From Candidatus Aquabacterium excrementipullorum (GTDB taxonomy: Bacteria > Pseudomonadota > Gammaproteobacteria > Burkholderiales > Burkholderiaceae_C), in contig DXIO01000014.1 of the NCBI GenBank assembly GCA_019112875.1, forward strand, positions 69,301-133,300: DNA of 64,000 bases, written 5' to 3'. Below are positions 29,757 through 56,792 of this stretch, in pieces. How positions within the stretch are numbered: the stretch's first letter is position 1; each line of letters opens with the position of its first letter. The position numbers were made by a program, and so were the translations under genes. The notes below the pieces were generated by a model. The model searched no databases. It had not been told where the DNA came from and was given only the letters and a program-made list of their open reading frames with translations.

Positions 29757-30218
29757 TCAATGGTGGGCGGCGGCACGGGCCTGGTCGCGCAGCGAACGCA
29801 CCAGGTCGTGGTTGCGTTGCACGCCAGCGCGCTGCGATACCAGCACCGAGCGAATCTCGTCGGGCAGATCCTTCTTCAGGGCCTTGTCGTAGCGGGCCAG
29901 GGCACGGTCTTCGCCGCGCTCGCATTCTTCCAGCACGGCCTTGTCATCCGACAGCGACAGCGCTGCCTTGATGTTCAGCCAGCCGCGGTGCAGGGCGCCG
30001 GAGGCGGTGCCGCCAGTGGCGGGTTGCTCCTGGTTGGCGTACACGATGCGCTGCAGTTCGGTGGCGGCGGCCTGGCATTCCGTGGCGCGGCGCTCGAACA
30101 TGGTCTTCAGGGTGGGAGAGTCGGCGTGTTCGGCACATTCCTTGAAGCCGTACTCGCCGTCCTTGCAGTTCTCGATGATGTCATTGACCGTGTCGATCAC
30201 TTCGGTTGCGTAGCTCAT
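29757..30218 (-). CDS. PA2169/DUF2383-family four-helix-bundle (ferritin-like) stress protein
   Basis: LNDIIENCKDGEYGF, GTASGALHRGWLNIK, ECERGED pattern typical of the family. Confidence 0.85.
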   Translation of the reverse strand: MSYATEVIDTVNDIIENCKDGEYGFKECAEHADSPTLKTMFERRATECQAAATELQRIVYANQEQPATGGTASGALHRGWLNIKAALSLSDDKAVLEECERGEDRALARYDKALKKDLPDEIRSVLVSQRAGVQRNHDLVRSLRDQARAAAHH

Positions 30219-30314
30219 GGGGTCTCCTTTCTGAGATCCGGGCCAGCCTTTTCATGCGGTGAAGGCGGCTGGCAAAACCGAGACTCCAGCGTAGGGGGCG
30301 GTCCGGCCGGGGGC

Positions 30315-30410
30315 AGTCAGTCGGCCCTGAAGTGCGGGTCAGCCATGCCTGACGGGCTGGCAAGGCCGATGTCAGCGCTTCTTGACACGCCCTGTCGGCA
30401 GGCGCCGATA
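30315..30410. promoter_or_regulatory. Four tandem palindromic boxes between the divergent PA2169-family and cls genes
   Basis: AGTCAG-N6-CTGAAG 30315, GGTCAG-N6-CTGACG 30337, TGTCAG-N6-TTGACA 30370, TGTCGG-N6-CCGATA 30393; -10-like TACGCT (minus, 30288-30293) and CACAAT (plus, 30432-30437). Confidence 0.7.
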
Positions 30411-30470
30411 GCCCGGCGGCCGGGCGCTGTACACAATAGGCCATCTGGATTGCGCGGACCGAGGTGTGGC

Positions 30471-31979
30471 GTGAGCCCTCAATCACAACAAGGACGAGTG
30501 CCGAGGAGACCCCATGAGCGATGCGACACCGAAGGTGCCCCACGCCCCCGTGCGCGGCCTGCTGCCCACATGCTGAGCTGCACGCTGGGTCTGGCCGCCC
30601 TGCTGGCGGGCTGTGGCTCGCTGGAGCCGCGGCGCCAGCCGGTCGTCGCCGACACCGTGGTGAGCAACGTACAGCTGGCGAGCCGGCTGCAGGTGGCCAC
30701 GGCCAACGACGACCTGCGGCGCCGCGAGCGCACCAACCTGATCGGGCAGCTGCAGTCCGAAGGGCGGCCTGACCTGGTCAAGCGCCACCTGGCCGCGATG
30801 ACCGCGCAGGAGCGTGTCCGGCTGGTGGCCGACAACGAGGTGCATCTGCTGGTGGACGGCCCCCAGACCTTCGCGGCCATGTTCAAGTCGCTGGAGGCGG
30901 CGCGGCGCTCGATCTGGCTGGAGAGCTACATCATCGAGGACGCCGACATCGCCGTGCGCCTGCGCGACCTGCTGATCCGCAAGCGCGCGCAGGGCGTGGA
31001 TGTGCGGGTGATCTACGACGCCGTGGGCTCCATCGGCACCTCGCGGGATTTCTTCCAGAGCCTGCGCGATGCCGGCGTGCACACCTGCGCCTTCAACCCC
31101 ATCAACCCGTTGAGCCGGCCCGGCTACTGGGGCATCAACCACCGGGACCATCGCAAGATCCTGGCCGTCGACGAGCAGCAGGCCTTCACGGGGGGCATCA
31201 ACATCTCCAAGGTCTACTCCTCGGGCTCGTCCTTCTTCAAGAAGCACAAGCCGCCCGAGGGCGAGGGCAAGGACAACGGCTGGCGCGACACGCAGGTGCA
31301 GATGGATGGCCCCGCGGCGGCCGAGATGGCCCGCATCGTGCGCCAGACCTGGGACGCGCAGGGCTGCAAGCCGGCCGTGGACCCGTCCATCGCGACGGGC
31401 AGCGATCCCAAGGGGGGCAAGAAGCGCGGTGACAAGGTCATGCAGGTGATCCCCAGCGGCCCCGATGAAAAGGGCATGGACACCTATGTGTCCCTGCTGA
31501 CGGCGCTGGACGCGGCGCAGCAGAGCATCCACATCACCATGGCCTACTTTTCGCCTGGCGAGGACATGGTGCAGGCCCTGTGCGATGCCGCGCAGCGGGG
31601 CGTGCAGGTGCAGCTGATCCTGCCGTCCATCAGCGATTTCAGCCCGGTGCTCTACGCCGGGCGCTCTTACTACGAGCGCCTGTTGCAGGCCGGCGTGAAG
31701 CTGTACGAACTGGACAGCGCCGTGCTCCATGCCAAGACGGCGGTGGTCGACGGGGTGTGGTCCACCGTGGGCTCCAGCAACATGGACTGGCGCAGCTTCG
31801 TGAGCAACAACGAGATCAACGTGGTGGTGCTGGGGCGCGACTTCGGGCAGGCGATGGAGGCGCAGTTTTCGCGTGACCTGGCCTCGTCCACCCCGATCGA
31901 GCCTGCGCAGTGGCCCAAGCGGCCGTTGATGGAAAAGCTCAAGGAGAAAGGCGCCCGCCTGTTCGAGCGCCTGATGTGA
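30471..31979 (+). CDS. Phospholipase D / cardiolipin synthase (ClsB-like)
   Basis: Two HKD motifs (HRKILAVD, HAKTAVVD), GSSNMD; LAGC lipobox-like segment; start is GTG 30471 (GAGG RBS) or ATG 30570. Confidence 0.88.
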   Translation: MSPQSQQGRVPRRPHERCDTEGAPRPRARPAAHMLSCTLGLAALLAGCGSLEPRRQPVVADTVVSNVQLASRLQVATANDDLRRRERTNLIGQLQSEGRPDLVKRHLAAMTAQERVRLVADNEVHLLVDGPQTFAAMFKSLEAARRSIWLESYIIEDADIAVRLRDLLIRKRAQGVDVRVIYDAVGSIGTSRDFFQSLRDAGVHTCAFNPINPLSRPGYWGINHRDHRKILAVDEQQAFTGGINISKVYSSGSSFFKKHKPPEGEGKDNGWRDTQVQMDGPAAAEMARIVRQTWDAQGCKPAVDPSIATGSDPKGGKKRGDKVMQVIPSGPDEKGMDTYVSLLTALDAAQQSIHITMAYFSPGEDMVQALCDAAQRGVQVQLILPSISDFSPVLYAGRSYYERLLQAGVKLYELDSAVLHAKTAVVDGVWSTVGSSNMDWRSFVSNNEINVVVLGRDFGQAMEAQFSRDLASSTPIEPAQWPKRPLMEKLKEKGARLFERLM

Positions 31980-32028
31980 TGAGTCGGTGAGGGGCAGGGC
32001 GCCGCGACGGCGTCCGCCCGTCCATGCC

Positions 32029-33159
32029 TCAGGCCATGATGGCCGAGTCGTGCACCGTGTCGTGCACGAAGCGCAGTTTCTGGCGCACCACCTCCGACAG
32101 GGCGAAGGGGTAGATGTCGTCCATGCCCATGCTGCGGTTCAGTGCATTGAGCGCCAGGCTCAGCGGCACCCAGCGCAGGATCAGCTGGTCGAAGTCGGGG
32201 CGCGTGTCACGCAGGATCTCTTCGCGCCGTGCCTTGCGGGCGGCTTTGCGGTCCTGGCCCGGCAGGCGCACGGAATCGGCGAAGTCATCGGCTGTTTCGA
32301 TCATGGCGCGCATGTGCATGTAGTGCGCCCAGGTCTCTGCCCAGCTCTCCCAGGGATGGGAGCTGGCGTAGGCGGAGATGTGTTCCTCGGCCCAGTCGGC
32401 CTGGGGCTGCTCGTAGTGGCGTTTGAGTGCCTCGCCATAGTCCTCGCGCTCGTCGCCGAAGAGTTCGCGGAAGGCATTGAGCCGCGCCTCCTGGGGCGCG
32501 ATGAGTTCGTCCCAGTAGAAGTGGCCGATCTCGTGGCGAAAGTGGCCAAGCACCGTGCGGTAGGGCTCGCCCAGTTGCTGGCGCGAGCGCACGCGTTCCA
32601 CATCGTCGGCTTCCGCCAGGTTGATCGTGATGTGACCGTGGTCGTGCCCGGTCATCACCTTGCAGCCCTGGTCAGGCAGGTTCTCCAGGAAGGAGAAGCG
32701 CAGCGGGTTGATGGTTTCGTGCTCGAACAGGGGCAGCCCCAGTTCACGCAGGTTGAACACCAGGCGGCGCTTGGCCGATTCCATCTTGTAGAGGGCGACG
32801 TGGCGCCCCTCCAAGGACAGGTTCGGAATGTCCCTTGTCAGCCGGCAGGATGCGCACAGCTCGTTGGGGTCACTGGCCTCGACGGCCCAGTTGCAGGTGT
32901 CTGTGCTCACGTAGTGGTGGCACAGGCGGTAGGCCGGGGCTTCCTCCTGGGGCAGGTCCGATGCGGCGGTGGCCTCGGGATCGATCGTGGCATCGGGCGA
33001 GGAGGGCGCCGCCACGCGCCACAGGCCATCGTCGCTGCGTTCCAGCGCGGCGACGCGGAACTGGTCGGGCAGAAAGGCCAGGGTATGGCCGCAGCCGACG
33101 CAGCGGGGGTTTTCGAAAAATACGGGGCTGTCGCAGTGGTCGCAGCGGAAAGTCCTCAT
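32029..33159 (-). CDS. Putative zinc-binding metallopeptidase with N-terminal zinc ribbon (DUF2248-like)
   Basis: CDHC...CVGC ribbon, CASC, TGHDHGHITI, GHFRHEIGHFYW (HExxH), SHPWESWAETWAHY. Confidence 0.82.
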   Translation of the reverse strand: MRTFRCDHCDSPVFFENPRCVGCGHTLAFLPDQFRVAALERSDDGLWRVAAPSSPDATIDPEATAASDLPQEEAPAYRLCHHYVSTDTCNWAVEASDPNELCASCRLTRDIPNLSLEGRHVALYKMESAKRRLVFNLRELGLPLFEHETINPLRFSFLENLPDQGCKVMTGHDHGHITINLAEADDVERVRSRQQLGEPYRTVLGHFRHEIGHFYWDELIAPQEARLNAFRELFGDEREDYGEALKRHYEQPQADWAEEHISAYASSHPWESWAETWAHYMHMRAMIETADDFADSVRLPGQDRKAARKARREEILRDTRPDFDQLILRWVPLSLALNALNRSMGMDDIYPFALSEVVRQKLRFVHDTVHDSAIMA

Positions 33160-33201: not shown

Positions 33202-33555
33202 TCAGGCGGCGGGTGTCAACCCGGCCAGGAGCTTCTGAAGTTCATCCACATCGAAAGGTTTGGACAGGATGTGCACGCGCTCGGGCAGGTGAGGGCGGTA
33301 CATCTCGGCGCGGTGGCCCGTCAGCAGCAGGCCGTGCAACTGGGTGTTGTGCGCCATCACCTGGCGCATCAGTTCCAGGCCCGACATGCCGGGCAGTTCC
33401 AGGTCACTGATGAGCAGGTCGACGTTGTCGGCCTGCAGGGCCTCGCTTCCAGCTTCCGCGCTGTCGAATGCCCGCACATCGTGCCCCCACGATTGCAGCA
33501 GCAGTTCCACCATGTCCCTCACGTCGGGCGCGTCTTCGATGTAAATGATGTTCAT
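33202..33555 (-). CDS. Single-domain response regulator (REC only)
   Basis: IYIEDAPD, LISDLELPGMSG, LLTG, SKPF; no output domain. Confidence 0.88.
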   Translation of the reverse strand: MNIIYIEDAPDVRDMVELLLQSWGHDVRAFDSAEAGSEALQADNVDLLISDLELPGMSGLELMRQVMAHNTQLHGLLLTGHRAEMYRPHLPERVHILSKPFDVDELQKLLAGLTPAA

Positions 33556-33699: not shown

Positions 33700-34212
33700 T
33701 CAGGCCATCGCCGCCTGGTAGGCGTGATGGCGCGACAAGTCGTGGTCGGCGAAGCGCGTGGAAGTCGGCAGGGAACGTTCCAGCGAGCGGCGCAGCCGGT
33801 GCAGCATGGTCTCGCGCTGCTCCAGGTAGAACTCGCAGGCCAGGGCTTCGGCCTGCGGCGAAACACGCCACAGCGGCACCAGCATCTCCTCGGCCATCAA
33901 GGCGGCCTCGACTTTGGCGTGGACCACGTCGAACATCATGGCCCAGCTGTCATCGCTGGGGTTCATGGCGACCAGGCGGGGCAGGATGGCGTGGTAGCAC
34001 TCGCGTTCGGTGAAGCCGTGGTCCTCGGTCATGCTGCGGCCGCCCACCTCGGTGCGGCCCAGCGCGCTGTCGCGCGCCATCAGGAAGCACATCAGTTCGG
34101 CCAGGGCCTCGCGGCGCAGGTCAGGGTTGAGTTCGCCCATGCGCTTGATCGCATCCATGTACAGCCGCACGGTCGTGTGGTCGTCGGTCATCAGTCTGTG
34201 GAACTCACCCAT
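33700..34212 (-). CDS. Hemerythrin-like helical protein with degenerate metal ligands
   Basis: LMTDDH start, helical pattern and later AEE resemble HHE-type domains; GGAG RBS; family call is an inference. Confidence 0.55.
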   Translation of the reverse strand: MGEFHRLMTDDHTTVRLYMDAIKRMGELNPDLRREALAELMCFLMARDSALGRTEVGGRSMTEDHGFTERECYHAILPRLVAMNPSDDSWAMMFDVVHAKVEAALMAEEMLVPLWRVSPQAEALACEFYLEQRETMLHRLRRSLERSLPTSTRFADHDLSRHHAYQAAMA

Positions 34213-34232
34213 GTCGCACTCCAAGCTCTAGG

Positions 34233-34439
34233 TCAGGGGCGCTGGCCGCGCCCGGGTTTCTTGATCTGGTCCAAGCCGCGCATGCCGCGCAGATCGGTGT
34301 CTTGCTGGCCGGACTCGATGTCCTGGCGGGCCTGTTCGATGACGCCTTCCTGATCGGGTCCGACGTCGTGGTGGTCCTGATCGCGTTCATGGGGCAGCCG
34401 GGCTTCGGACGCGGAATGAGGGGCTTTGTTCTGCTTCAT
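34233..34439 (-). CDS. Small hydrophilic hypothetical protein (68 aa)
   Basis: GGAG RBS; fills the gap between BON and hemerythrin-like genes on the same strand; QARQDIESGQQDTDLRG. Confidence 0.6.
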   Translation of the reverse strand: MKQNKAPHSASEARLPHERDQDHHDVGPDQEGVIEQARQDIESGQQDTDLRGMRGLDQIKKPGRGQRP

Positions 34440-34557: not shown

Positions 34558-35070
34558 TCAGGAGGTCTTGTCGACCGTCAGACGGTTGACCACATTGGTC
34601 ACGCCACTGACGGCCTGGGCCAGCTCGGAGGCGCGGCCCAGCGATTGGACGTCGGGGGCCACGCCGGTCAGGGTGACCTGGCCATCCTTCGTGTCCACGT
34701 TGATCTTGGTGGCCTTGAGCTTGTCGTCGGCGGCCAGCGCGGCGTTCACCTTGGTGGTGATGGTGGCGTCGGACACACCGGACTTGATCTTCTGGCCCAA
34801 CGCGTCCGCCTTGGCGCTGGCGCTGGCCGAGGCATCGGCCGACGCGTTCTTGGCGTCGTTCAAGGCGACCTGGGTGTCGGCCTTCAACTCGGCGGCGTCC
34901 TTGCGGGCCTCGGTGGCGGCGTTGTCGGCGGCGCTGGAAGCACTGGCGATGGCGCTGTCGAGTTGCTGGCCGGCCGTGCGTTCGTCGTGGCGGTTGCAGC
35001 CGCTCAGGGCCACGGTGCCCAGGAGGGCCAGGGTGGCGGGAACGATCAGGCGTTGTTTGAAGGTGTTCAT
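34558..35070 (-). CDS. BON-domain (OsmY-like) lipoprotein
   Basis: Lipobox ALSGC, Ala-rich helical linker, SDATITTKVNAAL...INVDTKDGQVTLTG...VTNVVNRL; AGGAG RBS. Confidence 0.9.
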   Translation of the reverse strand: MNTFKQRLIVPATLALLGTVALSGCNRHDERTAGQQLDSAIASASSAADNAATEARKDAAELKADTQVALNDAKNASADASASASAKADALGQKIKSGVSDATITTKVNAALAADDKLKATKINVDTKDGQVTLTGVAPDVQSLGRASELAQAVSGVTNVVNRLTVDKTS

Positions 35071-35164: not shown

Positions 35165-36670
35165 TCACAGGCCGATTCCCATGTCGGCGCATGCTGACAA
35201 TGGGGACGCAGGACGCATCGTGGCCTGCCCGGCCAACTGGGCGCGGGCATGGCCCAGGGCCGTGCGCACGGCCTCTTCGACCACGGGGTGGTAGATGGGA
35301 CAGTCCAGCAGGGTGTCCAGCGTCTGGCCCTGGTGCACGGCCCAGGCGAGCAGGTGGGCCAGGTGCTCGGCGCACGGGCCGATCATTTCCGCGCCGAGCA
35401 CCACGCGCCGTTGGCGGCACACGTAGACGCGAAGCGCGCCGCGGTTCATGTCCTTGATGCGGCTGCGTCCCTGGTCGGTGAAATCCGCCACGCCCACCAC
35501 GAAGGGATGAGCGACCTTGCTCAGATCTTCGTGTGAACGACCGAGCGCCGCGATCTGCGGATCACAGAACACGATGCGCAGGGGCGTGCGCCGCCCGCCT
35601 TCGAGGGGCGCTTCGGGCAGGTGGCTGGGGGGGCCGGGTTGCGCCACGGCCTGCGTGGCCGCGCGGCGGCCATCGAGCACGGCCTCGTGCAGCAGCGGGT
35701 GCGCGCCGCTGACATCGCCCGCGAGGAAGACGCAGCTGTCGCCCACGCGGGTGCTGCGATCCTGGTAGCCGGTGAGCTGTCCTTTGTCCAGCGTCAGGCC
35801 GCCCTGGGACAGGTCCAGGCCATCGAGCACGGGTTCGCGGCCGATGCACACCAGCACTCGTTCGACCACGGTGCTGCCGCGCTCGCCACCCACGTCGAAA
35901 TCCACGCGGGCCTGGCCGCCGTCGACCTCGGTCATGCCGCGCACATTGGCTCGCGTGATCAAGGTGATGCCTTCGGACAGCAGGGGAATCGCCAGCGGTC
36001 GCAGGGCAGGATCCTTCAGCCCGCCAGGCGCCTCTTCGCGCATGAGCCACACCACGCGAACGCCCAGCCGGTTGAGGGCCTGGGCCATCTCCGTGCCGAT
36101 GGCGCCCCCGCCGATCACGGCGATGGAGCGGGGCAGGGTGGGCAATTCGAACAGGGTGTCGGTGGTGAGCAGTTGACCCCCGAGTGCAGCCCGCCAGGCC
36201 TCGGGCACGACGGGACGTGATCCCGTGGCCAGCACGATGCTGCGGGCTTTCACGGTCGCATGCTCGTCCACCTGCAGCATGCAAGGCCCGATGAAGCGGG
36301 CCCGGCCTGCCAGCCGGTGCGCGGCGGGCCAGGCTTCGGCCTCGCGCACGACGCTGTCGACGAAATCGTCGCGCAATTCGCGCAGGCGGGCCATCACGGC
36401 GGCACCGTCGACCTGCGCACCCACGGCCTTGATGCCCAGGCGGTGAGCCTGGCGGATCGCGTGGGCACGGCTGGCTGCCTCGATCAGCAATTTGCTGGGC
36501 ATGCAGCCCGCGCGTGCGCACAGCGTGCCGTAGCCGCTGGACTCGATGAGCACCAGGCGCGACGTCTGTCGCGCAGCGGCCTTGTAAGCCGCCATGCCGG
36601 CCGATCCCGCCCCCACGATGGCCAGGTCGACATCCAGATGCTTGAGCCCTTGCTTGAGGGCGGCGGCCAC
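35165..36670 (-). CDS. Class I pyridine nucleotide-disulfide oxidoreductase (dihydrolipoyl dehydrogenase-like)
   Basis: IVGAGSAG FAD site, redox-active CARAGC, IGGGAIGTE, FLAGDV, YHPVVEE; GTG start just after the DUF3309 stop. Confidence 0.85.
   Translation of the reverse strand: MAAALKQGLKHLDVDLAIVGAGSAGMAAYKAAARQTSRLVLIESSGYGTLCARAGCMPSKLLIEAASRAHAIRQAHRLGIKAVGAQVDGAAVMARLRELRDDFVDSVVREAEAWPAAHRLAGRARFIGPCMLQVDEHATVKARSIVLATGSRPVVPEAWRAALGGQLLTTDTLFELPTLPRSIAVIGGGAIGTEMAQALNRLGVRVVWLMREEAPGGLKDPALRPLAIPLLSEGITLITRANVRGMTEVDGGQARVDFDVGGERGSTVVERVLVCIGREPVLDGLDLSQGGLTLDKGQLTGYQDRSTRVGDSCVFLAGDVSGAHPLLHEAVLDGRRAATQAVAQPGPPSHLPEAPLEGGRRTPLRIVFCDPQIAALGRSHEDLSKVAHPFVVGVADFTDQGRSRIKDMNRGALRVYVCRQRRVVLGAEMIGPCAEHLAHLLAWAVHQGQTLDTLLDCPIYHPVVEEAVRTALGHARAQLAGQATMRPASPLSACADMGIGL
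35182..35199. promoter_or_regulatory. Palindromic box upstream of the BON gene, embedded in the 3' end of the flavoprotein CDS
   Basis: TGTCGG-CGCATG-CTGACA; -10-like TATCGT on the minus strand (35132-35137) starts 45 nt away. Confidence 0.75.
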
Positions 36671-36672: not shown

Positions 36673-36831
36673 TCAGATGTGGCCCATCAGGACCAGGATC
36701 ACCAGGATCACCACCACCAGGCCCAGCCCGCCGGTCGGGCCGTAGCCCCAGTTTCGGCTGTGAGGCCAGGTGGGCAGGGCGCCGATGAGCATCAGCAGCA
36801 GCACGATCAGAAGGATGGTTCCCAGTGTCAT
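36673..36831 (-). CDS. DUF3309-family small membrane protein (52 aa, not in the ORF track)
   Basis: MTLGTILLIVLLLMLIGALPTWPHSRNWGYGPTGGLGLVVVILVILVLMGHI; GGAG RBS. Confidence 0.9.
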   Translation of the reverse strand: MTLGTILLIVLLLMLIGALPTWPHSRNWGYGPTGGLGLVVVILVILVLMGHI

Positions 36832-48319: not shown

Positions 48320-50406
48320 GTGCGCAGCCGGCCCGTGTGCCGCCCAACGAGCCGGCCTCCGTGGCCGAGGAACTGACATCGCCGCCACCCGCAGCCCCGC
48401 CCCCTCGTCGGCGCCGTCTGCGCGCGGCTTGGTGGGTGCCGGGTTTGCTGGTGGTGGCCGTGGTGGGTGGTGTCGCCTACGGCGAATACCGCGCATGGCC
48501 TTGGCTGTCCGCACCGGCCGAACGATTCCTGTCGAATTCCCTGCACCGTCAGGTGAGTTTCGGCGAGGCGCCAAGCCAGGCCCAGGCGCGCGTTCGCCTG
48601 CTGGGCGGCATCCGCATCTGGGCCGATCAGTTGCGCATTGGATCGCCCGAATGGAGCAAGGCGCCCTTCATGGTGATGGCCGATGGGGCCTACCTGCAGC
48701 TGGCCTACCATGACCTGTGGCGTGCGTACCGTGGCAAGCCGGTGCTGGTCGAGCAATTGCGCGCGCGCCAGCTCACGGCCTGGCTGGAACGCACGGCCGA
48801 CAACCGTGCCTCGTGGCAATTCGGCCCACCGAGGCAGGAAAAGCCCGAAGCCAAATCCCTGCTGGACGGCCTGCACTTCGATGTGCTGGAACTGGCGCAA
48901 GGGCAGATCAACTACAAGGATGCACCGCTCGCCCTGGATTCGCGCACCGAGGTGTCTCTCAGCGTGCGCGACGCCCGCCGGGCTGGCCCTCTCAAGGATG
49001 GTGAGGTACCGGAAGGCGTGCGCGCCAGGAGCCAGGGCAGTTACCAGCGCTTTCCGCTGCGTGCTGCGCTCACTTCCGGGCAACTGGCGCCTTGGCTGCT
49101 GGGGGGCGAGGGACGCATGGCCTGGCCGATCGACTTCCACCTCAACGTGGGGCAGGCACGGGTGGACTTCACCGGCTCGGTGGACCAGTTGAGCGCCGAG
49201 GCCGATGTGCTGGGCAACTTCCAGGCGAAGGGCCCCTCCCTCGCGGCCATGGGTGAGCCCCTGGGCGTGACCCTGCCCACCACCGGCGCCTTCGCCATGC
49301 GTGGTGCCGTGCGGCACCAGGGGCTGCGCACCTCCGTGGTCGTGAAGGGCGCGGAAATCGGATCGAGCCGTCTGCGGGGCGAGTTCGTCTACGACCGCCG
49401 GCCGGAGGTGCCCATGCTCGCCGGGCGGCTGGGCGGTACCCGCCTGGCGCTGGCCGATCTGGGCCCGGCCATCGGCGTGCCCACCAGTGGTCAGCCCGCC
49501 TCCAGCCGCAAGGAGGACGCACGCGTGCTGCCCGATCGCCATTTCGATCTGCCCTCGCTGGCCATGATGAACGCCAACGTGCTGATCGACATTGCCCAGC
49601 TGGACCTGAGTTCCGAGGTGCTTGAGCCCTTGCAGCCCCTCAAGGGCCACCTGGTGCTCGATTCCTCCGTGCTGACCATCAGCGACCTGCAGGCCCGCAC
49701 GGCGCAGGGCGAACTCACGGGCCGCCTGGCCCTGGACGGCACCCAAAAGAACAAGGCCTTGTGGAACGCTGACCTGGCGGTCAACAACGTGGTGATCGAG
49801 AACTGGATCAAGGCGCTCAAGCCCGAGGGGCGAGCGCCTTACCTGACCGGCCGCGTCACCGGCCGGGCCATGGTGAAGGGCGAAGGCCAGTCCACCGCCG
49901 CCATCCTGGGCTCGCTGACCGGGCCGGTGCAGGTGCGCCTGCGTGACGGCACGATCTCGCACCTGGCCGTGGAAGGCGCGGGCATCGACGTGGCGCAGGT
50001 GCTGGGTGTGCTGATCCGCGGCGACGATTCCCTGGCCGTGCCTTGCGCGCGGGCCGACATCAAGGCCTTCAACGGCACGCTCACACCGGAACTGTTCGTC
50101 ATCAACACCAAGGATTCCAGCGTGTGGGTGCAGGGCTCGCTGTCGCTCAAGGATGAGCGCATGGCCCTGCAGGCGCGCGTGGCACCCAAGGACTTCAGCG
50201 TGCTGACGCTGCGCACCCCGGTGCAGGTCAACGGCCCGTTGAACGATCCGCACGTGTCCATCAAGGCTTCGGCCTTGTTGCCGCGCGTGGCCGGGGCCGT
50301 GGCGCTTGGATTCCTGAATCCGGTGGCCGCGATCGTGCCGCTGATCGACCCGGGCAACAAGGACATCGCACGTCAGGCCGACCAGGCCTGCGACGCGGGC
50401 CAATGA
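48316..50406 (+). CDS. AsmA-family protein (YhjG-like)
   Basis: N-terminal TM, repeating beta segments, LADLGPAIG, C-terminal LRTPVQVNGP...NPVAAIVPLIDPG; ATGA overlap with the upstream gene. Confidence 0.85.
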   Translation: MSAQPARVPPNEPASVAEELTSPPPAAPPPRRRRLRAAWWVPGLLVVAVVGGVAYGEYRAWPWLSAPAERFLSNSLHRQVSFGEAPSQAQARVRLLGGIRIWADQLRIGSPEWSKAPFMVMADGAYLQLAYHDLWRAYRGKPVLVEQLRARQLTAWLERTADNRASWQFGPPRQEKPEAKSLLDGLHFDVLELAQGQINYKDAPLALDSRTEVSLSVRDARRAGPLKDGEVPEGVRARSQGSYQRFPLRAALTSGQLAPWLLGGEGRMAWPIDFHLNVGQARVDFTGSVDQLSAEADVLGNFQAKGPSLAAMGEPLGVTLPTTGAFAMRGAVRHQGLRTSVVVKGAEIGSSRLRGEFVYDRRPEVPMLAGRLGGTRLALADLGPAIGVPTSGQPASSRKEDARVLPDRHFDLPSLAMMNANVLIDIAQLDLSSEVLEPLQPLKGHLVLDSSVLTISDLQARTAQGELTGRLALDGTQKNKALWNADLAVNNVVIENWIKALKPEGRAPYLTGRVTGRAMVKGEGQSTAAILGSLTGPVQVRLRDGTISHLAVEGAGIDVAQVLGVLIRGDDSLAVPCARADIKAFNGTLTPELFVINTKDSSVWVQGSLSLKDERMALQARVAPKDFSVLTLRTPVQVNGPLNDPHVSIKASALLPRVAGAVALGFLNPVAAIVPLIDPGNKDIARQADQACDAGQ

Positions 50407-50473: not shown

Positions 50474-50818
50474 TCAGGCCGTGTGCACGCGCATCAGCGG
50501 GGTCAGCACACCGTTGATGCGGGTGCGCACTTCCAGCCAGGGGTGCTTGCGATGGGCAAGGTGGCGACGCACCGCCTCGGCGGCGGCATGCATCAGGCCG
50601 CGGCGGGTGGGCTGGCCGCCGCGGCACAGGCCGCGCGGGATCACCAGGGCGATTTCCTGCGGCCGCTGGGGGCGATCGGCCACGGCCAGCATGCAGGGCA
50701 CCACCACCACCTTGTGATTGGCCAGGCTCACTTCCACATCATGGGTCTGTTCGTGGGGCTCCTCGGTATCGTCGGCGCTCAGGACATCGTCCAGCTCCTT
50801 GATGGTCACGATCTTCAT
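50474..50818 (-). CDS. Hypothetical protein (~114 aa)
   Basis: MKIVTIKELDDVL...; GAGG RBS; preceded by a palindromic box and -10-like TAGCAT. Confidence 0.6.
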   Translation of the reverse strand: MKIVTIKELDDVLSADDTEEPHEQTHDVEVSLANHKVVVVPCMLAVADRPQRPQEIALVIPRGLCRGGQPTRRGLMHAAAEAVRRHLAHRKHPWLEVRTRINGVLTPLMRVHTA

Positions 50819-50913
50819 GGCTTGTACCTCGTTATCGTTGTCGCGCTCTTTCAGCATGGGTCTCATGCTAGGCAGAGGCATGGAGCGCGTCTGTCGTCAA
50901 GGACTGTTTGCCA

Positions 50914-50992
50914 TGTAGGCATGGACCGACCCTGCTCGAGGGGTGCGGGGCATGGACTTTTCGGTCAACCAAGGCGTCGGCTCCGGCTGACA
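50914..50992. promoter_or_regulatory. Two palindromic boxes between the divergent hypothetical and DUF1328 genes
   Basis: TGTAGG-CATGGA-CCGACC 50914 and CGTCGG-CTCCGG-CTGACA 50975; -10-like TAGCAT (minus, 50865-50870) 44 nt from 50914. Confidence 0.75.
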
Positions 50993-51113
50993 CGGGGATC
51001 AGCCGCTGCTGGCGCTGGCCGGCGTTGGTCGCCGACTGCCGCGGTGCCTGGTGGGCGGCAGCATCCTTGCATGGCCGCCGGTCTTCGTGGCGACCCCAAG
51101 AAAGGACCTGATC

Positions 51114-51290
51114 ATGTTGAAATGGGCTCTGATATTCGCGCTGATCGCCGTCGTGGCCGGTCTGCTGGGCTTCACGGGCGTGGCGGCGGGCGCAGCCTCG
51201 ATCGCCAAGGTGCTGTTCGGGATCTTCCTGGTGCTGGCCCTGGTCGTGCTGCTACTGGGCGTTCTTGGCGTCAAGGCGTTCAGCCGCTGA
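51114..51290 (+). CDS. DUF1328 (YtjA-like) small membrane protein
   Basis: [38 protein letters not shown]; AAGGA RBS. Confidence 0.9.
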
Positions 51291-51941
51291 CGATGCCGCC
51301 GCCGCTGCGGCCGCCCGCCGGGTGGGCAGCAGCGGCACCTCGCGGGACACGATGCCCGCGAGATCCTTCATCAAACCGGCCATGGCGTCGGTCTGGGCAG
51401 CGGCTCCCGAGCCGCTGCCCTTGCTTTGCAGAGGCTGGCTGCTGGTGCGAAGCACCTGGCCATCTTCACCCAGCAAGGTCCACTGTGCCCAGGCCGTGAG
51501 GTTCTGCGAAGCACGGTCGTAATCCAGGGGCGAGAGGCTCACCAGCAGCCGTACGGGCCGGCGCGACGCGCCTTCGCAGCGCAGCGGGCACAGCTGCCAC
51601 GGCGTCGGCAGCGCATGTTCCAGCTCAATGGACAGGTTGCGCGTGAGCCCCACCTCCACGCGTTCAGCCCACACCGTGTCCTCCCAGGATTTGAGTTCGC
51701 TGCCCTCGCGGTAACGCACCGAGCGCGATTGCCAGTATTCCGGAATGTCCAGCCGGCCCAGCTGCAGCCAGCGCGTGCCGGCATTGCCAGCGCTGGCGGA
51801 GGCCTGCGGCAGGGAAGGCGTGGGCAGCGCGAGCACGGTCTGGGGCGGCGGGCTGCTCGCGCAGCCAGCAAGCAGTGCGGCCAGCGTGAGTGTCAAGGTG
51901 CCGGCCCAGCAGGCGGGGCGGGTGATCTGGCGGATGGGCAT
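51252..51941 (-). CDS. PqiC-like ABC-transport auxiliary lipoprotein
   Basis: Lipobox LLAGC, IPEYW, WAERV; last gene of the MCE operon. Confidence 0.78.
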
Positions 51942-51952
51942 GGGGTGTCTCC

Positions 51953-52912
51953 TCAGCGGCGCCCGAAGATCAGGGCGTTGGGCTGGTTCTCCAGCAGTTC
52001 GGCCACCTGGCGCAGGCTGCGCGCCGTCAGCGACAGATCGCGCAGGGTGGATTCCAGGTCTTCACGCGGGGCAGAGCCCGGCGCCGACAGTTCGGCGAAG
52101 GATTGCATGCTCACCTCGACAGAGCGCGCGGCGTCCCGGGCGGATGCCAGGGTGAGCGCCACGTCTGGCTGGGTGGCTGCCACCAGGTTGTTGGTCGTGT
52201 CCGACAGGCGCTGCACGGATTGCAGCGTGCCATTGGCCTGCTGTCCCACCGATTGCAGCGTGCGGTCGGTGTTGCGCATGATCTCCTGCGCGGCCAGCGA
52301 GGCCTGGCGCCAGTCTTCACCGGCCTGCTTCATCACTTTCTGCGCGGCCACGGAGGTCTGCTGCAGTTCACCCAGCGTGCGGCGCAGGTCGCCCACCGTG
52401 TCCTTGAGCGGCAGCTCGCTGATTTGGGCCACCAGGTCGTCGAACGCCCCCTTGACCACGGGAATCTCCACGCTGCGGCTTTCCGGATCGCCATGCAGGG
52501 CCAGCGGTGACTTGGGATCGAAATCCAGGTCGATCAGGGCCTGGCCCGTGACCAGGCTCTGCTGCGCCAGCCGGGCTCGCAGGCCGCGCTGCACCAGCTG
52601 GCGAAGGTCCATGTTGTCCTGGCCTCCGCTCATCTGCAGCAGCTTGGAGGTGATGAACAGTTGCACCGGCACGCGTGTGACCAAGTTGTTCGGATCGACC
52701 TCGATGCCGATGGCGTCCACCTGGCCGATGGGCACGCCCCGGAAGGTGACGGGGGCGCCCACGTACAGGCCCTTGACGCTGTTGGTGAAGTAGACGACCG
52801 CGCGCACGCGCTGTTCGAACAGGCGGTTGCCGCCCAGGAAGGTGATGGCCGCGGCCGCCAGGGCCAGCGCCGTCAGCACGAACAGGCCGATCAGCAGGGC
52901 ATTGCGTTTCAT
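51953..52912 (-). CDS. MCE-domain (MlaD-family) protein with helical C-terminus
   Basis: N-terminal TM, YFTNSVKGLYVGAPVTFRGVPIGQV, GLRARLAQQSLVTG, LENQPNALIFGR. Confidence 0.9.
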   Translation of the reverse strand: MKRNALLIGLFVLTALALAAAAITFLGGNRLFEQRVRAVVYFTNSVKGLYVGAPVTFRGVPIGQVDAIGIEVDPNNLVTRVPVQLFITSKLLQMSGGQDNMDLRQLVQRGLRARLAQQSLVTGQALIDLDFDPKSPLALHGDPESRSVEIPVVKGAFDDLVAQISELPLKDTVGDLRRTLGELQQTSVAAQKVMKQAGEDWRQASLAAQEIMRNTDRTLQSVGQQANGTLQSVQRLSDTTNNLVAATQPDVALTLASARDAARSVEVSMQSFAELSAPGSAPREDLESTLRDLSLTARSLRQVAELLENQPNALIFGRR

Positions 52913-53664
52913 GACGAAGGCTCCTGTCGCGCCAGGAAGGCGCGCACGGTGGGATGGGTGTCGGTGGCGCTTTTGAGATCAGCGGGTTTGCCGCGCGCGA
53001 TGGGGCGCTTGCTCTCGGCGTCCAGGAAGATGCCGTCGTCGGCGATGGACAGCAGGCTTTCGAGCTCGTGGCTCACGATCAGCACGGCGGCACCGGTGCG
53101 GTCGCGCAGGTCGGTGATGAGCTTGTCCAGCCGCACGGAACTGATCGGGTCCAGACCGGCGGAGGGCTCGTCGAAGAACAGGAAATCGGGCTCGCCGGCG
53201 ATGGCGCGGGCCAGGCCGGCGCGCTTCTTCATGCCGCCGCTGAGGTCAGAGGGGCGCTTGTCGGCAGCGTCTTCCATGCCCACCCATGAGAGCAGCTCCA
53301 GCGCGCGGTCGCGGCGTTCGGCCTTGGCCATGTCGGGCGATTTGAGCTCCAGCGGCACGATCACGTTGTCGAGCACGCTCATCGAGGTCCACAGCGCGGC
53401 ACTCTGGAACAGCACGCCGAAGCGCTGGCGGATCTGGCGCTGCTGCGCTTCGTTCGCGGCCCAGTAGTCCTCGTCGTCGATCAGCACCTGGCCTTCGTAA
53501 GGGCACAGCAGGCCGATCATGTGCTTGAGCAGGGTGCTCTTGCCGCAGCCACTGCCGCCCATGATGGCGAACACGGTGCCCGATTCCACCGAGAAGTCGA
53601 TGCCTTCCTGGATCAGCCTGTCGCCGAAGCGCATCGTGAGGTTCTTGACGTCCAGGCGGCTCAT
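52909..53664 (-). CDS. ABC transporter ATPase (MlaF-like)
   Basis: GGSGCGKST, LSGGMKKRAGLARA, FFDEPSAGLDP, VSHEL. Confidence 0.92.
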   Translation of the reverse strand: MSRLDVKNLTMRFGDRLIQEGIDFSVESGTVFAIMGGSGCGKSTLLKHMIGLLCPYEGQVLIDDEDYWAANEAQQRQIRQRFGVLFQSAALWTSMSVLDNVIVPLELKSPDMAKAERRDRALELLSWVGMEDAADKRPSDLSGGMKKRAGLARAIAGEPDFLFFDEPSAGLDPISSVRLDKLITDLRDRTGAAVLIVSHELESLLSIADDGIFLDAESKRPIARGKPADLKSATDTHPTVRAFLARQEPSS

Positions 53665-53668
53665 GGGC

Positions 53669-54469
53669 TCAGATGTCCAGTGCGTTGGCGCACACGGCGA
53701 AGATGGCGTCCAGCGCGATCACGCCCACGATGCCGGCCACCACGGCCTTGGTGGTGGCGCGGCCCACGCCAGCGGCGTCCCGGCTGGCTGTCATGCCGGC
53801 GTAGCAGCCGCCGATGGCGATCAGCACGCCGAAGACGACCGTCTTGCTCATGCCCAGGCCCACGTAGCTCAGCGGGCTGGCCAGCAGCGCACGGTCGAAA
53901 TAGGCCTGGGGGTTCAGATCGAGCATGGTGGTGCCCACGGCCATGCCGCCCAGCAGCGCGGCCACGCACCCGTACACGTAGAGCAAGGGCATCATCACCA
54001 GCAGGGCCAGCACGCGCGGCAGCACCAGGTAGCCGATGGGGTCGAGCCCGAGCACGCGCAGCGCGTCGATCTCTTCATTGGCCTGCATGGTGGCCAACTC
54101 GGCGGCGAAGGAGGCCGCGGTGCGCCCGGAGATCACCACGGCCGTGATGACGGCGGCCATCTCGCGCGTGACGGCGATGCTGACCAGGTCGGCCACGTAG
54201 ATGCCCGCGCCGAACTTCACCAGCTGCACCGCCCCCACGAAGGCCAGGATGGCCCCCACCAGCGCGTTGACCACCAGCACGATGGGCAGGGCCTGGGCGC
54301 TGGCCTCGTTGAGCACCCTGAGCAGGTCGGGCCGGCGAAACTGCCAGCCCTTGAGCGCCCGGCCACTGGCCAGCAGCACCTCTCCCAGGAAGGCCACGGG
54401 CAGCAGCCACGCGCTCAGGCGTGACTGCAGGCGAAGCTTGGTGGAAGAAGGGGCCGCCGGTTTGGGCAT
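53669..54469 (-). CDS. MlaE-family permease
   Basis: REMAAVITAVVISGRTAASFAAELATMQANEEIDALRVLGLDP, VLPR, GVGRATT. Confidence 0.92.
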   Translation of the reverse strand: MPKPAAPSSTKLRLQSRLSAWLLPVAFLGEVLLASGRALKGWQFRRPDLLRVLNEASAQALPIVLVVNALVGAILAFVGAVQLVKFGAGIYVADLVSIAVTREMAAVITAVVISGRTAASFAAELATMQANEEIDALRVLGLDPIGYLVLPRVLALLVMMPLLYVYGCVAALLGGMAVGTTMLDLNPQAYFDRALLASPLSYVGLGMSKTVVFGVLIAIGGCYAGMTASRDAAGVGRATTKAVVAGIVGVIALDAIFAVCANALDI

Positions 54470-54478
54470 GGCCCTATT

Positions 54479-55321
54479 TTAGAAGCGCAGGCGCAGGTAG
54501 ACGGCCGGGCCGTCGAGTTCCAGCCGCACACGGGCCGTGGCGGCGTCGTCCTTCTGCTTCAGGCGGATGCGGGTGGAGGCGTACTCCGCGCCGATACCGA
54601 CGTTCTTCCAGGGGAACCATTCGGCGCCGATGGCGGCGTTGGTGATGGTGCCCGACAGGTCGCTGCCGTTCTTGCGCACGCCCGACAGGTCGGCGTAGAG
54701 GCGCACCTGCTCGGACACCTTGGCACGCCAGCCCAGGGTCACCAGAGGGGCCCAGCCGGACTCGTCGTAGCGCTGGATGGTGTTGTAGCCGATGGGGCCC
54801 ACGCCCACCGATGCGCGCAGGGTGGCGTCGAGCTTGTAGTACGCCGCGCCCAGGCCCAGGCCGAACACGTTGTTGTTGCTCTGGTCACCGAACCACCAGC
54901 GGTACGAGAAGTTGCCGATGTCCAGCGTGGTGTCGGAGGCCACGCGGCCGGCGGCGGTGTAGTTCACGCCACCGAAGGTGAAGGGCTGCTCGATGCTGCG
55001 GGCGCTGTCGTCGTGGATGCGGAAGTAATCCACCGAGAAGCCCTGGCTGTCCATGATCAGCCAGTCGAGGCGGGCGCGCTCGACGGTCTTCTTGCCCGAC
55101 AGGAACTGTTGGTCCCCCGTGTCGATGTTGTTGGACGGGTCACGCACGGAGGCGAAACCGTCGATGTCGGCGCGGTAGCCGCCCAGCCAGATGCTGACAC
55201 GGTCCAGCGCCGGCGAGGGCTCGGCCCGCGCGACGCGCGGTGCCAGGCTCCACACGGCCGTGGCGGCGATGACAGCGGTGGTGAAGATGAATTTCTGATT
55301 TTTGTTCACGATAGGCCTCAT
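54479..55321 (-). CDS. Predicted outer-membrane beta-barrel protein of unknown family
   Basis: Signal peptide ending ARA, amphipathic beta strands, C-terminal YLRLRF beta-signal; ATG overlaps the ferritin-like stop (ATGA). Confidence 0.8.
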   Translation of the reverse strand: MRPIVNKNQKFIFTTAVIAATAVWSLAPRVARAEPSPALDRVSIWLGGYRADIDGFASVRDPSNNIDTGDQQFLSGKKTVERARLDWLIMDSQGFSVDYFRIHDDSARSIEQPFTFGGVNYTAAGRVASDTTLDIGNFSYRWWFGDQSNNNVFGLGLGAAYYKLDATLRASVGVGPIGYNTIQRYDESGWAPLVTLGWRAKVSEQVRLYADLSGVRKNGSDLSGTITNAAIGAEWFPWKNVGIGAEYASTRIRLKQKDDAATARVRLELDGPAVYLRLRF

Positions 55322-55896
55322 TCGAGCATGTCCTTGAGTTCGTCGGCGTGTTCCTCCTCGACGCTGAGGATGGACTCCAGCATGCGTCGGGTGGTCGGGT
55401 CTTTGTCGCCGATCAGGGCGACCATCTGTCGGTAACTTTCGATGGCCACGCGTTCGGCCACCAGGTTGGCACGCACCATGGCCTTGAGGTCCGTGGAGGT
55501 GTCGTAGTCGGCATGGCTGCGTTCCAGGATGCCGACCGGGTTGAAGTCCGGCTCGCCGCCCAGCTGGATGATGCGTTCGGCGATCTGGTCGGCATGGGCC
55601 GCTTCTTCGTTGGCGTGCACCATGAACTCTTCGGCGATCTTGGGCGAGGCCAGGCCGTGTGCCGTGAAGTGATGGCGCTTGTAGCGCAGCACGCACACCA
55701 GTTCGGTGGCCAGCGCGCCATTGAGCAGGCGCACGATCTCGTCGCGCCAGGGACCGTAGCTGGGCGTCACGGCACCTTCGTCGATGCCTTGGCGGGCCGC
55801 TTCGATGGCGTCCTCATCCAGGGTCAGCGAGTGGATGGCGTCGTTGGCCTGCGGTCGACCGCGCGGTGTGGACGGTTGGGTGGCTGGGTGAGACAT
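55318..55896 (-). CDS. Bacterioferritin-like / ferritin-like protein
   Basis: LATELVCVLRY, EEAAHADQIAERIIQLGGEP, AERVAI, EEEHADEL diiron ligands; AGGAG RBS. Confidence 0.88.
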   Translation of the reverse strand: MSHPATQPSTPRGRPQANDAIHSLTLDEDAIEAARQGIDEGAVTPSYGPWRDEIVRLLNGALATELVCVLRYKRHHFTAHGLASPKIAEEFMVHANEEAAHADQIAERIIQLGGEPDFNPVGILERSHADYDTSTDLKAMVRANLVAERVAIESYRQMVALIGDKDPTTRRMLESILSVEEEHADELKDMLE

Positions 55897-55999
55897 CTCA
55901 CGCTCCTGAAGGGCTGCTTGTCAGTGCCGGCAGGCCGGCGAAGTGCGGGATGGCGCGTCCGTGGGGACGGAAGGGTCGCGCCACCCCGCCGCTCATGTG

Positions 56000-56197
56000 T
56001 CAGTGGGTGGAGGTCCAGCTGTCCACTTGACGCTCGGCCTCATCCTTGGCGATGCCATAGCGTTCCTGGATGCGGCCGACCAGTTGCTCACGGCGGCCTT
56101 CGATCTTGTCGAAGTCGTCGTCGGTCAGCTCGCCCCACTGCTCCTGCACCTTGCCCTTGAGTTGCTTCCAATTGCCTTGCACGCGATCCCAGTTCAT
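56000..56197 (-). CDS. csbD: CsbD-family general stress protein
   Basis: MNWDRVQGNWKQLKGKVQEQWGELTDDD...GRIQERYG. Confidence 0.92.
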   Translation of the reverse strand: MNWDRVQGNWKQLKGKVQEQWGELTDDDFDKIEGRREQLVGRIQERYGIAKDEAERQVDSWTSTH

Positions 56198-56314
56198 GGC
56201 CTTGTCCTTTCGGTGGTGATTCGAGGGAAATTGCCCGCTGTGTGTCAGTTCGGGCAGTCGAATGCACTGTAGGAACGCGCCGTCGGGCCGTCTGTAGTCA
56301 AGTGATGAAGCTGG

Positions 56315-56360
56315 CGTCAGCAAGCGCTGACGTCTCGTTACGCGTCAGATGCGGCTGACA
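56315..56360. promoter_or_regulatory. Tandem palindromic boxes (28-bp period) between the divergent csbD and hypothetical genes
   Basis: CGTCAG-CAAGCG-CTGACG 56315 and CGTCAG-ATGCGG-CTGACA 56343; -10-like TACAGT (minus, 56266-56271) 44 nt from 56315. Confidence 0.78.
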
Positions 56361-56462
56361 CAGCTTTCGGCGCCCGCCGCCTGCGCAAACCCGGCGGATT
56401 GCGGGAGCATTCGGTCCATGCCCTGAACCCGATCGCCGCCACCTGTTGTGAAGGACACCACC

Positions 56463-56792
56463 ATGAGCGTTGCACCCACCTGGAGCCTGAAGACGGCCGC
56501 CAAGCACGACGATGATGCATCGCTCATGCCCTACCTGTTCTACACGCTGTTGCTGGCCTTGTGGATCACGCTGCTGGCGGTGTTCTACGGCGTGATGTCG
56601 GACACCGTGAACCGCGCCGAGAAGCACCAGCGCGATTCGGCCGACCGTGCACTGGCCTTCAGCCGCTGCGACTGGAAGATCAGCAGCGAAGCGCGCAGCC
56701 AGTGCCGTGCCGAACTGGCCGGCCCGCAGCAGTCGGAACTGCCCAGCCTGTCGTCGGACATCGAGCCTTCGCTGAACCTGGCCTACCGCTGA
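56463..56792 (+). CDS. Hypothetical single-pass membrane protein with a Cys pair
   Basis: TM YLFYTLLLALWITLLAVFYGVM; CDWKISSEARSQC; AAGGA RBS. Confidence 0.65.
   Translation: MSVAPTWSLKTAAKHDDDASLMPYLFYTLLLALWITLLAVFYGVMSDTVNRAEKHQRDSADRALAFSRCDWKISSEARSQCRAELAGPQQSELPSLSSDIEPSLNLAYR

Follow-up and report, generated by a model that had tools for sequence, protein, structure and literature searches.

The 64,000-nucleotide stretch of Candidatus Aquabacterium excrementipullorum analysed here (contig DXIO01000014.1; "the window") contains a 27-kb block of 31 genes in about 13 transcription units at positions 29757–56792, with a stress-protection, redox and envelope-maintenance content. We are fairly confident, from sequence comparison, that this block is a co-regulated regulon island. 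A palindromic operator is shared by nearly all of its transcription units and is conserved in position among relatives, and co-regulation is strongly predicted from such an arrangement. The explanation that we find probable as a whole combines a regulon island, brought together in a single subclade of the genus between alkB and mtgA, which converge on it, with activator-dependent promoters and a NarL-family response regulator, encoded on another contig, as the candidate activator.

A preliminary description of this DNA had placed a general-stress gene cluster between alkB and mtgA and had noted the lack of a sigma factor gene in it. The limits of the block are as proposed. The left flank consists of an AraC gene and an FA_desaturase/AlkB-type gene ending at 29656, with hairpin terminators (29678–29749) between this gene and the island. 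On the right, mtgA (Transgly, 56820–57632) is followed by aroE, a TonB-like gene and RNase II. Both alkB and mtgA point toward the island. Raw lists of open reading frames (ORFs) are noisy at the 68% G+C of the window, and genes were called using a log-likelihood model of codon usage, for which long ORFs of the same genome served as training set (4.75 Mb, 99.99% complete, of which the island represents 0.57% by length); gene starts are model-based. Four of the calls (the DUF2383 protein of 153 aa, the PLD protein of 469 aa, the Peptidase_Mx protein of 376 aa and a REC protein of 117 aa) coincide with independent calls on metagenome contigs with an identical protein. Families were assigned using Pfam and NCBIfam, which recovered those listed earlier (PA2169, PLD/cls, BON, DUF3309, YbhP, YihY, GSP26, AsmA, DUF1328, MCE, ferritin-like, CsbD and a phosphorelay), while the C-x10-C protein was recognized by direct reading of its sequence. 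To these we add a Zn-ribbon and Peptidase_Mx protein, an Lpd-like flavoprotein disulfide reductase, DUF1345, a barrel-like outer-membrane protein, two REC-only proteins, a stand-alone kinase-core-like protein and four ORFs without a family match. Pfam and NCBIfam found no sigma factor gene among the called island genes, and a hidden Markov model search found no RpoS in the genome as a whole. By tblastn against the whole genome, CsbD, DUF2383, DUF3309, GSP26, the ferritin-like protein, YihY, DUF1345 and Peptidase_Mx are single-copy; thus, the sole copies of many classic stress families are gathered in the island. Together with the operator enrichment and the conserved gene order and operator positions described below, this shows that the physical clustering of stress and envelope genes goes beyond chance.

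Shared control is predicted from the operator. TGTCAG is the most enriched hexamer in the 2.2 kb of island intergenic DNA (11 observed vs 0.53 expected, P = 1e-11). The core palindrome GTCAG-N6-CTGAC occurs in 10 exact copies in the genome, 5 of them inside the island (binomial P ~1.5e-9 by our own arithmetic), and six is the sole spacing of the two arms that gives island matches. Allowing one mismatch adds six sites, five of which are in promoter regions. A generalised 18-mer, TGT[C/A][A/G]G-N6-C[C/T][T/G]ACA, has 17 genome matches at spacer 6, compared to 0–6 at other spacings, and 15 and 16 matches in two relatives (G064 and G071), where a reversed control pattern gives 5 and 2. Here and below, G000 is this genome, other G numbers are genus genomes, C numbers are contigs of this genome and L numbers are fetched loci. 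The island's own scores are circular for a weight matrix trained on its sites, while these exact-pattern counts are not. The operator, with 0–1 mismatch or as a generalised match, is present at 11 of the approximately 13 transcription units:

30316–30386, DUF2383/cls divergent region: three operators, at 30316 (one mismatch), 30338 (exact) and 30371 (one mismatch); positions are kept and spacers vary in G064, G071 and G021.
35183–35198, upstream of the BON gene: TGTCGGCGCATGCTGACA; conserved, with TATCGT 45 nt downstream.
36942–36959, DUF3309/hyp191 divergent region: variant TGTCGG-N6-CCTACA; orthologous sites in G064 and G071.
39001–39016, upstream of RR2: exact operator; conserved in G064.
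45002–45048, divergent region between the hybrid kinase and the YbhP-like gene: two operators, TGTAGGGGGATGCTGACA and TGTCAGCAGCAGCCGACA; conserved in all four island-bearing genomes.
47721–47736, upstream of GSP26-AsmA: exact operator; conserved.
50976–50991, hyp127/DUF1328: operator with one mismatch; conserved.
56316–56359, CsbD/hyp114: two exact operators; conserved in all four genomes, with TACAGT 44 nt from the CsbD-facing site.

At 8 of the 11 gene-facing sites, a -10-like hexamer (TACGCT, CACAAT, TATCGT, GACACT, TAAGGT, CAATCT, TACAGT or GAGCAT) lies 44–45 nt from the palindrome. This spacing ranks first of the 98 tested (z ~3.5) and would put the palindrome centre near -65. No canonical sigma-70 -35/-10 promoter was found between 29.5 and 49.4 kb. 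The predicted promoter anatomy, a palindrome at a fixed distance and no -35 element, is that of activator-dependent promoters.

Several further features were seen in these regions. An operator-like site within the BON gene (34667–34682), with one mismatch here and none in G064, is retained by all four genomes; it may serve hyp68-hyp174-RR1-Peptidase_Mx as an internal promoter, or coding constraint alone may account for it. The DUF3309/hyp191 region (36880–36960) contains a second conserved palindrome type, TGTAGG-N6-CCTACC, and several CCTACA repeats; CCTACA may serve both as a variant half-site and within a -10 element. At 45085–45110, the conserved -10-like TAAGGT of the YbhP-like gene overlaps its called GTG/ATG start, indicating that either the true start is further downstream or the mRNA is leaderless.

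The genes of the island, in order along the window, are as follows:

29757–30218, minus strand: DUF2383 protein (PA2169 family), 153 aa (Pfam PF09537, E 6e-39).
30570–31979, plus: PLD-type cardiolipin synthase, 469 aa (PLDc_2 twice; TIGR04265 at 286.6 bits, just below the cut-off of 290; ClsB model 211 bits).
32029–33159, minus: Zn-ribbon and Peptidase_Mx metallopeptidase-like protein (PF15887, E 2e-94; PF10005).
33202–33555, minus: REC-only response regulator RR1 (PF00072), kept in all four island-bearing genomes.
33700–34224, minus: hyp174, no Pfam or NCBIfam match.
34233–34439, minus: hyp68, hydrophilic, no Pfam or NCBIfam match.
34558–35070, minus: BON-domain lipoprotein, OsmY-like (PF04972, E 1e-18).
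35165–36670, minus: Lpd-like flavoprotein disulfide reductase (Pyr_redox_2/dim; NF004939 at 531 bits), following DUF3309.
36673–36831, minus: DUF3309 small membrane protein (PF11752).
37117–37692, plus: hyp191, secreted, with three C-x10-C repeats read directly from the sequence; no family match.
37773–38522, plus: stand-alone protein, probably kinase-core-like; no Pfam match.
38511–44906, minus: five-gene phosphorelay resembling cfcABCDE (Pfam), made up of the next five entries.
38511–38918, minus: REC-only protein RR2 (Pfam).
39002–40168, minus: REC-HisKA-HATPase protein, the REC-kinase (Pfam).
40152–40838, minus: CheB without REC (Pfam).
40835–41674, minus: CheR (Pfam).
41679–44906, minus: GAF hybrid kinase with three REC domains, GAF being the only sensory domain detected by Pfam.
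45098–45937, plus: YbhP-like endonuclease/exonuclease/phosphatase (EEP; PF03372), start codon uncertain.
46006–46737, minus: DUF1345 (PF07077), divergent from YihY.
46750–47628, plus: YihY/BrkB (PF03631), divergent from DUF1345.
47822–48319, plus: GSP26-type Pyrid_ox_like protein (PF16242).
48316–50406, plus: AsmA-family protein (PF05170).
50474–50857, minus: hyp127, divergent from DUF1328.
51051–51290, plus: DUF1328/YtjA-like protein (PF07043).
51252–56197, minus: tight seven-gene unit from CsbD to an auxiliary lipoprotein (Pfam), collinear in G064, G071 and G021, made up of the next seven entries.
51252–51941, minus: auxiliary lipoprotein (PF03886).
51953–52912, minus: MlaD, the MCE protein (PF02470).
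52909–53664, minus: ABC ATPase (PF00005).
53669–54469, minus: MlaE permease (PF02405).
54479–55309, minus: barrel-like outer-membrane protein.
55318–55896, minus: ferritin/Dps-like protein (Pfam).
56000–56197, minus: CsbD (Pfam).
56448–56792, plus: hyp114, small membrane protein, no family match; conserved at 76–78%.

The permease, ATPase, MCE protein and auxiliary lipoprotein are encoded by consecutive genes, as in MCE transporters of the Mla/Pqi-like type, and sub-clusters of the seven-gene unit are found in G001, G068 and G070. hyp174 and hyp68 are conserved at 81–91% in G064, G071 and G021. Neither the window nor five related loci had an Rfam match.

A synteny comparison across 61 species representatives of the genus showed that the clustering is conserved in relatives, with the island present in only 4–5 of the sampled species. 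G064 has the whole island, collinear, at 80–88% nucleotide identity. G071 and G021 have all the stress genes plus RR1, the REC-kinase and the kinase-core-like gene, and are without RR2, CheB, CheR and the GAF kinase; the incomplete genome G045 has the island in part. Operators are at orthologous places in G064, G071 and G021, with conserved arms and variable spacers, and sites were also seen in the G045 parts. In G070, G009, G048 and G043, AraC-alkB is directly beside mtgA-aroE with a gap of 0.25–2.5 kb, so the block is not ancestral here and was inserted or assembled in one subclade. In G009, G048 and G043 (L128, L129 and L130), the gap holds two genes, one for an extracytoplasmic function (ECF) sigma factor (206 aa) and one DoxX-like (156 aa), and in G070 it holds none; it looks like a hotspot of variable gene content.

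Such a sporadic distribution, together with the clean empty site, would be expected if the genes were together since they had co-arrived on a horizontally acquired mobile island. We regard this as very improbable. The window contains no tRNA gene, and the called genes include neither integrase nor transposase families; direct repeats at the flanks were not part of the search. The G+C of the island (0.65–0.69) equals that of the flanks and its codon scores are typical for the genome. Furthermore, homologs with the same operator are found in other arrangements within the genus, as AsmA-[site]-MlaEFD-lipoprotein-DUF1328-CsbD in G001 and G068 and as [site]-DUF1328-ferritin-BON-CsbD-REC in G070, which favours assembly within the lineage over foreign acquisition.

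The preliminary description had also credited the island with its own signalling module. The phosphorelay would then sense stress and switch on the neighbouring genes, a proposal consistent with its mid-island location, with the operators at 39001 and 45002–45048, and with the fact that every one of the four island-bearing genomes keeps RR1, the REC-kinase and the kinase-core-like protein. That part of the description is not supported, and we consider a self-contained module improbable. The island phosphorelay is not likely to be the master switch, since none of its proteins has a DNA-binding domain detectable with Pfam or NCBIfam, the cassette itself carries operators, and RR2, CheB, CheR and the GAF kinase are missing from two of the four island-bearing species, G071 and G021, which yet keep all the stress genes and operators. 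The cassette has a hybrid kinase, CheR, CheB, REC-kinase and REC protein in one unit, as in cfcABCDE, and no MCP, CheA or CheW. The kinase-CheR-CheB cassette is also found across many phyla, and elsewhere in the genus, with no stress genes beside it, and thus is not the conserved core of the island. Its order is the same in Pseudomonas (45–48% identity to the island GAF kinase), Rhodocyclales, Stenotrophomonas and other loci, and paralogous cassettes are located on C94 and C106 of this genome. A synteny search anchored on the GAF kinase returned just this widespread cassette.

The kinase-core-like protein has an invariant histidine in the sequence MRHDLMNQL and only 13 close homologs among 5.8 billion proteins. 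Its AlphaFold model (pLDDT 66) matches the dimerization/phosphotransfer and catalytic (DHp+CA) cores of HK853, DesK, DivL and RetS with E ~1e-4 and TM-scores of just 0.30–0.39. DivL and RetS are pseudo-kinases, and the island protein may be a pseudo-kinase or a phosphotransferase.

The operator is not confined to the island. A weight-matrix scan and the generalised pattern, applied to the whole genome, located it before the catalase HPII gene (katE), a BON-DUF883-DUF1328 operon, DUF3606, an OmpA/Gly-zipper lipoprotein gene, glgX, which heads a glgB-glgC cluster containing trehalose-type genes, a circularly permuted ATP-grasp operon, a second BON gene, and a paralogous operon with EEP, ClsB and YbhN-like genes (ybhP-clsB-ybhN, C71). 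An exact generalised operator, TGTAGGGGCCCCCTTACA, is also located just upstream of an RsbR/RsbS/RsbT-like stressosome unit (C119:46373–48872; 296, 132, 139 and 224 aa, identified by eye). The content of the predicted regulon is essentially that of the enterobacterial RpoS regulon. The desiccation role proposed previously is conjecture, prompted only by the gene families and the operator before the glycogen/trehalose cluster.

Two other sites were noted. At C106:34492–37526, a site (score 17.9) precedes the gene for a 180-aa membrane protein beside egtD- and egtB-looking genes (ergothioneine synthesis); the paralogous kinase-CheR-CheB cassette of this contig is at 44.6–47.3 kb. At C104:4405–9211, an exact palindrome between a TolC-like outer-membrane gene and a LapG/LapD-looking pair (by eye) points tentatively to a connection with adhesin release or biofilm.

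The sigma factors of the genome, judged by Sigma70_r4 matches, are RpoD, RpoH, FliA and ECFs only. With the RpoS model (TIGR02394, cut-off 378.7 bits), the best match in G000 is RpoD at 279.8 bits, and none of 25 genus genomes exceeds the cut-off. A match just under it (362.7 bits) in G015, on a very small contig (C284:118–957 of that genome), could represent a retained or re-acquired gene or contamination. RpoS is present in 8 of 16 other families of the order and is patchy within the family (56 of 150 genera); thus, its absence here is a lineage loss rather than a family trait.

Another reading is that the clustering has no regulatory meaning. The palindromes would then be repetitive extragenic palindromic (REP)-like repeats, terminators or leftover promoter elements of RpoS or ECF type. 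The -10-like sequences CTACAGT and CTACGCT resemble an RpoS-type -10 with C at -13 (CTAYRCT), as in the E. coli consensus, RpoS occurs in the 56 genera mentioned above, and G009, G048 and G043 have an ECF sigma gene at the empty site. We find this hardly credible: no RpoS is encoded, the sites lie in promoter regions and not after genes, the stem would be only 5 bp, and the arms are conserved while the spacers vary. CTACAGT, CTACGCT and CTACACC do occur in island promoters, but 44–45 nt from the palindrome, and this distance to the -10-like hexamer is fixed.

The candidate for the activator is a NarL-family response regulator at C130:26322–26990, with a nearby CHASE3-HisKA_3 kinase (C130:27575–28993). 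The exact operator on C130 is flanked on one side by the BON-DUF883-DUF1328 operon, followed by the CHASE3-HisKA_3 kinase and then by a REC-only gene and the NarL regulator, and on the other side by a large hybrid kinase. To place this locus, 17-kb contexts of regulator orthologs were compared in 20 genus genomes and 20 genomes from other genera. In all 20 of each set, the triad of REC-only protein, NarL regulator and CHASE3 kinase is beside DUF1328, BON, ferritin-like, DUF883 or Peptidase_Mx genes. G070 has this triad within its stress cluster, and in G015 and G042 the system is part of 17–20 kb clusters with 13–15 homologs of island or regulon genes. Homologs of Peptidase_Mx adjoin it in many genera, and those of hyp191 in other species. 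In 11 of 13 genomes of the more similar group (at least 66% identity), an operator precedes the regulator start codon by 59–103 bp (9 exact, 2 with one mismatch), where chance would give ~0.001 exact sites per 300 bp. These sites were found with the generalised TGTMRG-N6-CYKACA; few were picked up by the strict GTCAG core. Among the orthologs, the recognition helix (KTVSTYR) hardly varies. The best family match of the regulator is UvrY/GacA (NF007018) at 170.4 bits, below the equivalog cut-off of 280, and the REC-only protein beside it scores 27.9 bits against the PhyR model (cut-off 240). In balance, the odds lean slightly toward the C130 regulator being the activator of the island operators.

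In other genera, where a BON gene is next to the NarL system (L189–L195 and L199), a structured-looking 5' leader element, GGAGGGTGCAACAGRCCG ... CAGCACCCGYGTT, is conserved in at least 7 genera. It may form a GGGTGC/GCACCC stem and could be an unknown cis-regulatory RNA; Rfam gave no match in the five of these loci searched (L189, L190, L192, L193 and L199).

A number of observations weigh against the proposed regulon and its regulator. The DUF1345/YihY pair has no operator with 0–1 mismatch in or near its 12-bp gap. The promoters of the kinase operon, hyp127 and DUF1328 have no hexamer at 44–45 nt, and CCTACA in the "-10" position might represent a half-site and not a -10 element. RpoS and the CHASE3/NarL system occur together in several genera; the idea that this system replaces RpoS family-wide was discarded on this ground and on the occurrence of RpoS in the family. 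The assignment of the regulator is guilt by association. The exact palindrome is rare near the system in most other genera, where the regulator is only ~50% identical; these loci instead have a TGTCGG-N6-CCTACA-type element and a proximal CCTACAGT. Finally, the genome encodes two paralogous NarL-type regulators (C28 and C120) with near-identical recognition helices, which score 186.6 and 167.1 bits with the GacA model.

The last two points also open the way to another factor. One of the paralogs, or a member of an unrelated family, might bind the palindrome, with the two-component system a mere member of the regulon. The three NarL-type regulators have nearly the same recognition helix and comparable GacA-model scores (187, 170 and 167 bits), so GacA-likeness was dropped as a specific argument for the C130 protein, and the ~50%-identity group mostly has no operator upstream of the regulator gene. 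Nevertheless, the C130-type regulator alone shows synteny with stress genes that carry the operator (40 of 40 genomes), and its closer orthologs have the operator upstream in 11 of 13 cases. Control by a different factor therefore seems to us rather unlikely, though a serious contender.

In the regulon-island explanation, a dimeric helix-turn-helix activator would bind the palindrome under stress and recruit the housekeeping RNA polymerase to promoters that lack a -35 element. The activator may be the C130 regulator, phosphorylated by the adjacent CHASE3-HisKA_3 kinase. The island would be turned on together with the unlinked katE, BON-DUF883-DUF1328, glgX glycogen/trehalose, DUF3606 and ybhP-clsB-ybhN genes and the OmpA-like lipoprotein. 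The cfcABCDE-like phosphorelay, the two REC-only proteins and the kinase-core-like protein would form a regulated, dispensable input or feedback branch, not the output. A more far-reaching version, which we put forward tentatively and hold at somewhat less than an even chance, is that the regulator acts directly on ~20 operons via a GacA-box-like 18-bp operator near -65, that the regulon has repeatedly condensed into islands of 17–30 kb, and that the core neighbourhood (REC/regulator/kinase-DUF1328-ferritin-BON-Peptidase_Mx) is present in about half of the genera of the family.

Most of the understanding of general stress responses comes from the alternative sigma factors RpoS, SigB and EcfG, and little is known of how the same protective genes are coordinated in bacteria lacking all of these. 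The locus offers a testable model, with an 18-bp operator, ~20 predicted target operons and a named candidate two-component system. The predicted regulon unites proteins of unknown function (DUF2383, DUF3309, DUF1328, DUF1345, CsbD, the C-x10-C protein and Peptidase_Mx), which should aid the assignment of their roles. The four island-bearing species and those with the empty site provide a natural series from a dispersed regulon to a gene cluster.

Literature searches on this system or regulon, or on RpoS loss in Comamonadaceae, returned nothing relevant. A clustered, co-induced stress locus as such is already known. The preliminary description had considered such genes to be scattered in model bacteria, which is not always so: PA2134–PA2192 of P. 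aeruginosa is a large locus of mostly hypothetical genes, including trehalose genes, that is linked to quorum sensing and RpoS and in which 31 genes are co-induced under oxidative stress (PMC3224232). The two resemble each other as large chromosomal clusters of mostly hypothetical stress genes. By its gene number PA2169, the namesake of DUF2383, presumably falls in this locus, which also holds PLD, EEP and CsbD-like genes. However, PA2134–PA2192 is tied to RpoS and quorum sensing, whereas the island has a shared palindromic operator and no RpoS; katE and the glycogen/trehalose genes are outside the island, and the gene order is unrelated. What sets the present case apart is the combination of a genome lacking RpoS, a predicted palindromic activator-type operator common to nearly all units, and a candidate two-component master regulator with a family-wide neighbourhood. 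Achromobacter, too, has a small co-induced cluster, made up of CsbD, DUF1328 and BON genes (PMC11719878).

The island overlaps in family content with the RpoS regulon of E. coli and Salmonella, in which osmY (BON), elaB (DUF883), dps and katE are sigma-S controlled. E. coli also has the ybhP-clsB-ybhN gene order seen in the C71 operon with its operator; the preliminary description counts ybhP-clsB among general-stress regulon members. Salmonella yjbJ (CsbD-like) and ytjA (DUF1328) are under tight sigma-S control (PMC5437024). The difference lies in the arrangement, with a sigma factor and scattered genes there, and an operator near -65 and clustered genes here.

The phosphorelay resembles cfcABCDE of P. 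putida, a five-gene unit with a hybrid kinase, CheR, CheB, a REC-containing protein and a fifth gene, and no chemoreceptor (PMC4951495). CfcA is described as a CHASE3/GAF kinase feeding the diguanylate cyclase CfcR (PMC6849547); CfcA is needed for CfcR activity, CfcR expression is RpoS-dependent, and the CheR- and CheB-like genes have no role in chemotaxis (PMC4951495, PMC6849547). In contrast, the island kinase has only GAF detectable by Pfam, the island has no CfcR-like partner, and the cassette is located among operator-bearing stress genes.

The PhyR-NepR-EcfG system of Alphaproteobacteria is similar in serving a general stress regulon in RpoS-free bacteria, with kinases and REC-only proteins as its inputs; CsbD, BON, Dps and small DUF-family proteins are among its targets. 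Its output, however, is an ECF sigma factor, released by partner switching and acting at a -35/-10 element, compared to a palindrome here, and no ECF or PhyR gene was found in the island or the C130 locus.

GacS/GacA (BarA/UvrY) also relies on a NarL-family regulator. The GacA box is TGTAAG-N6-CTTACA, and the island 18-mer has a like form, TGTxxG-N6-CxxACA. The C130 regulator is not an ortholog, as its score is below the UvrY/SirA/GacA cut-off. Its partner is a CHASE3-HisKA_3 kinase, whereas kinases of the GacS/BarA type are hybrid kinases, and its predicted targets are many protein-coding stress operons, while those of GacA are small RNA genes.

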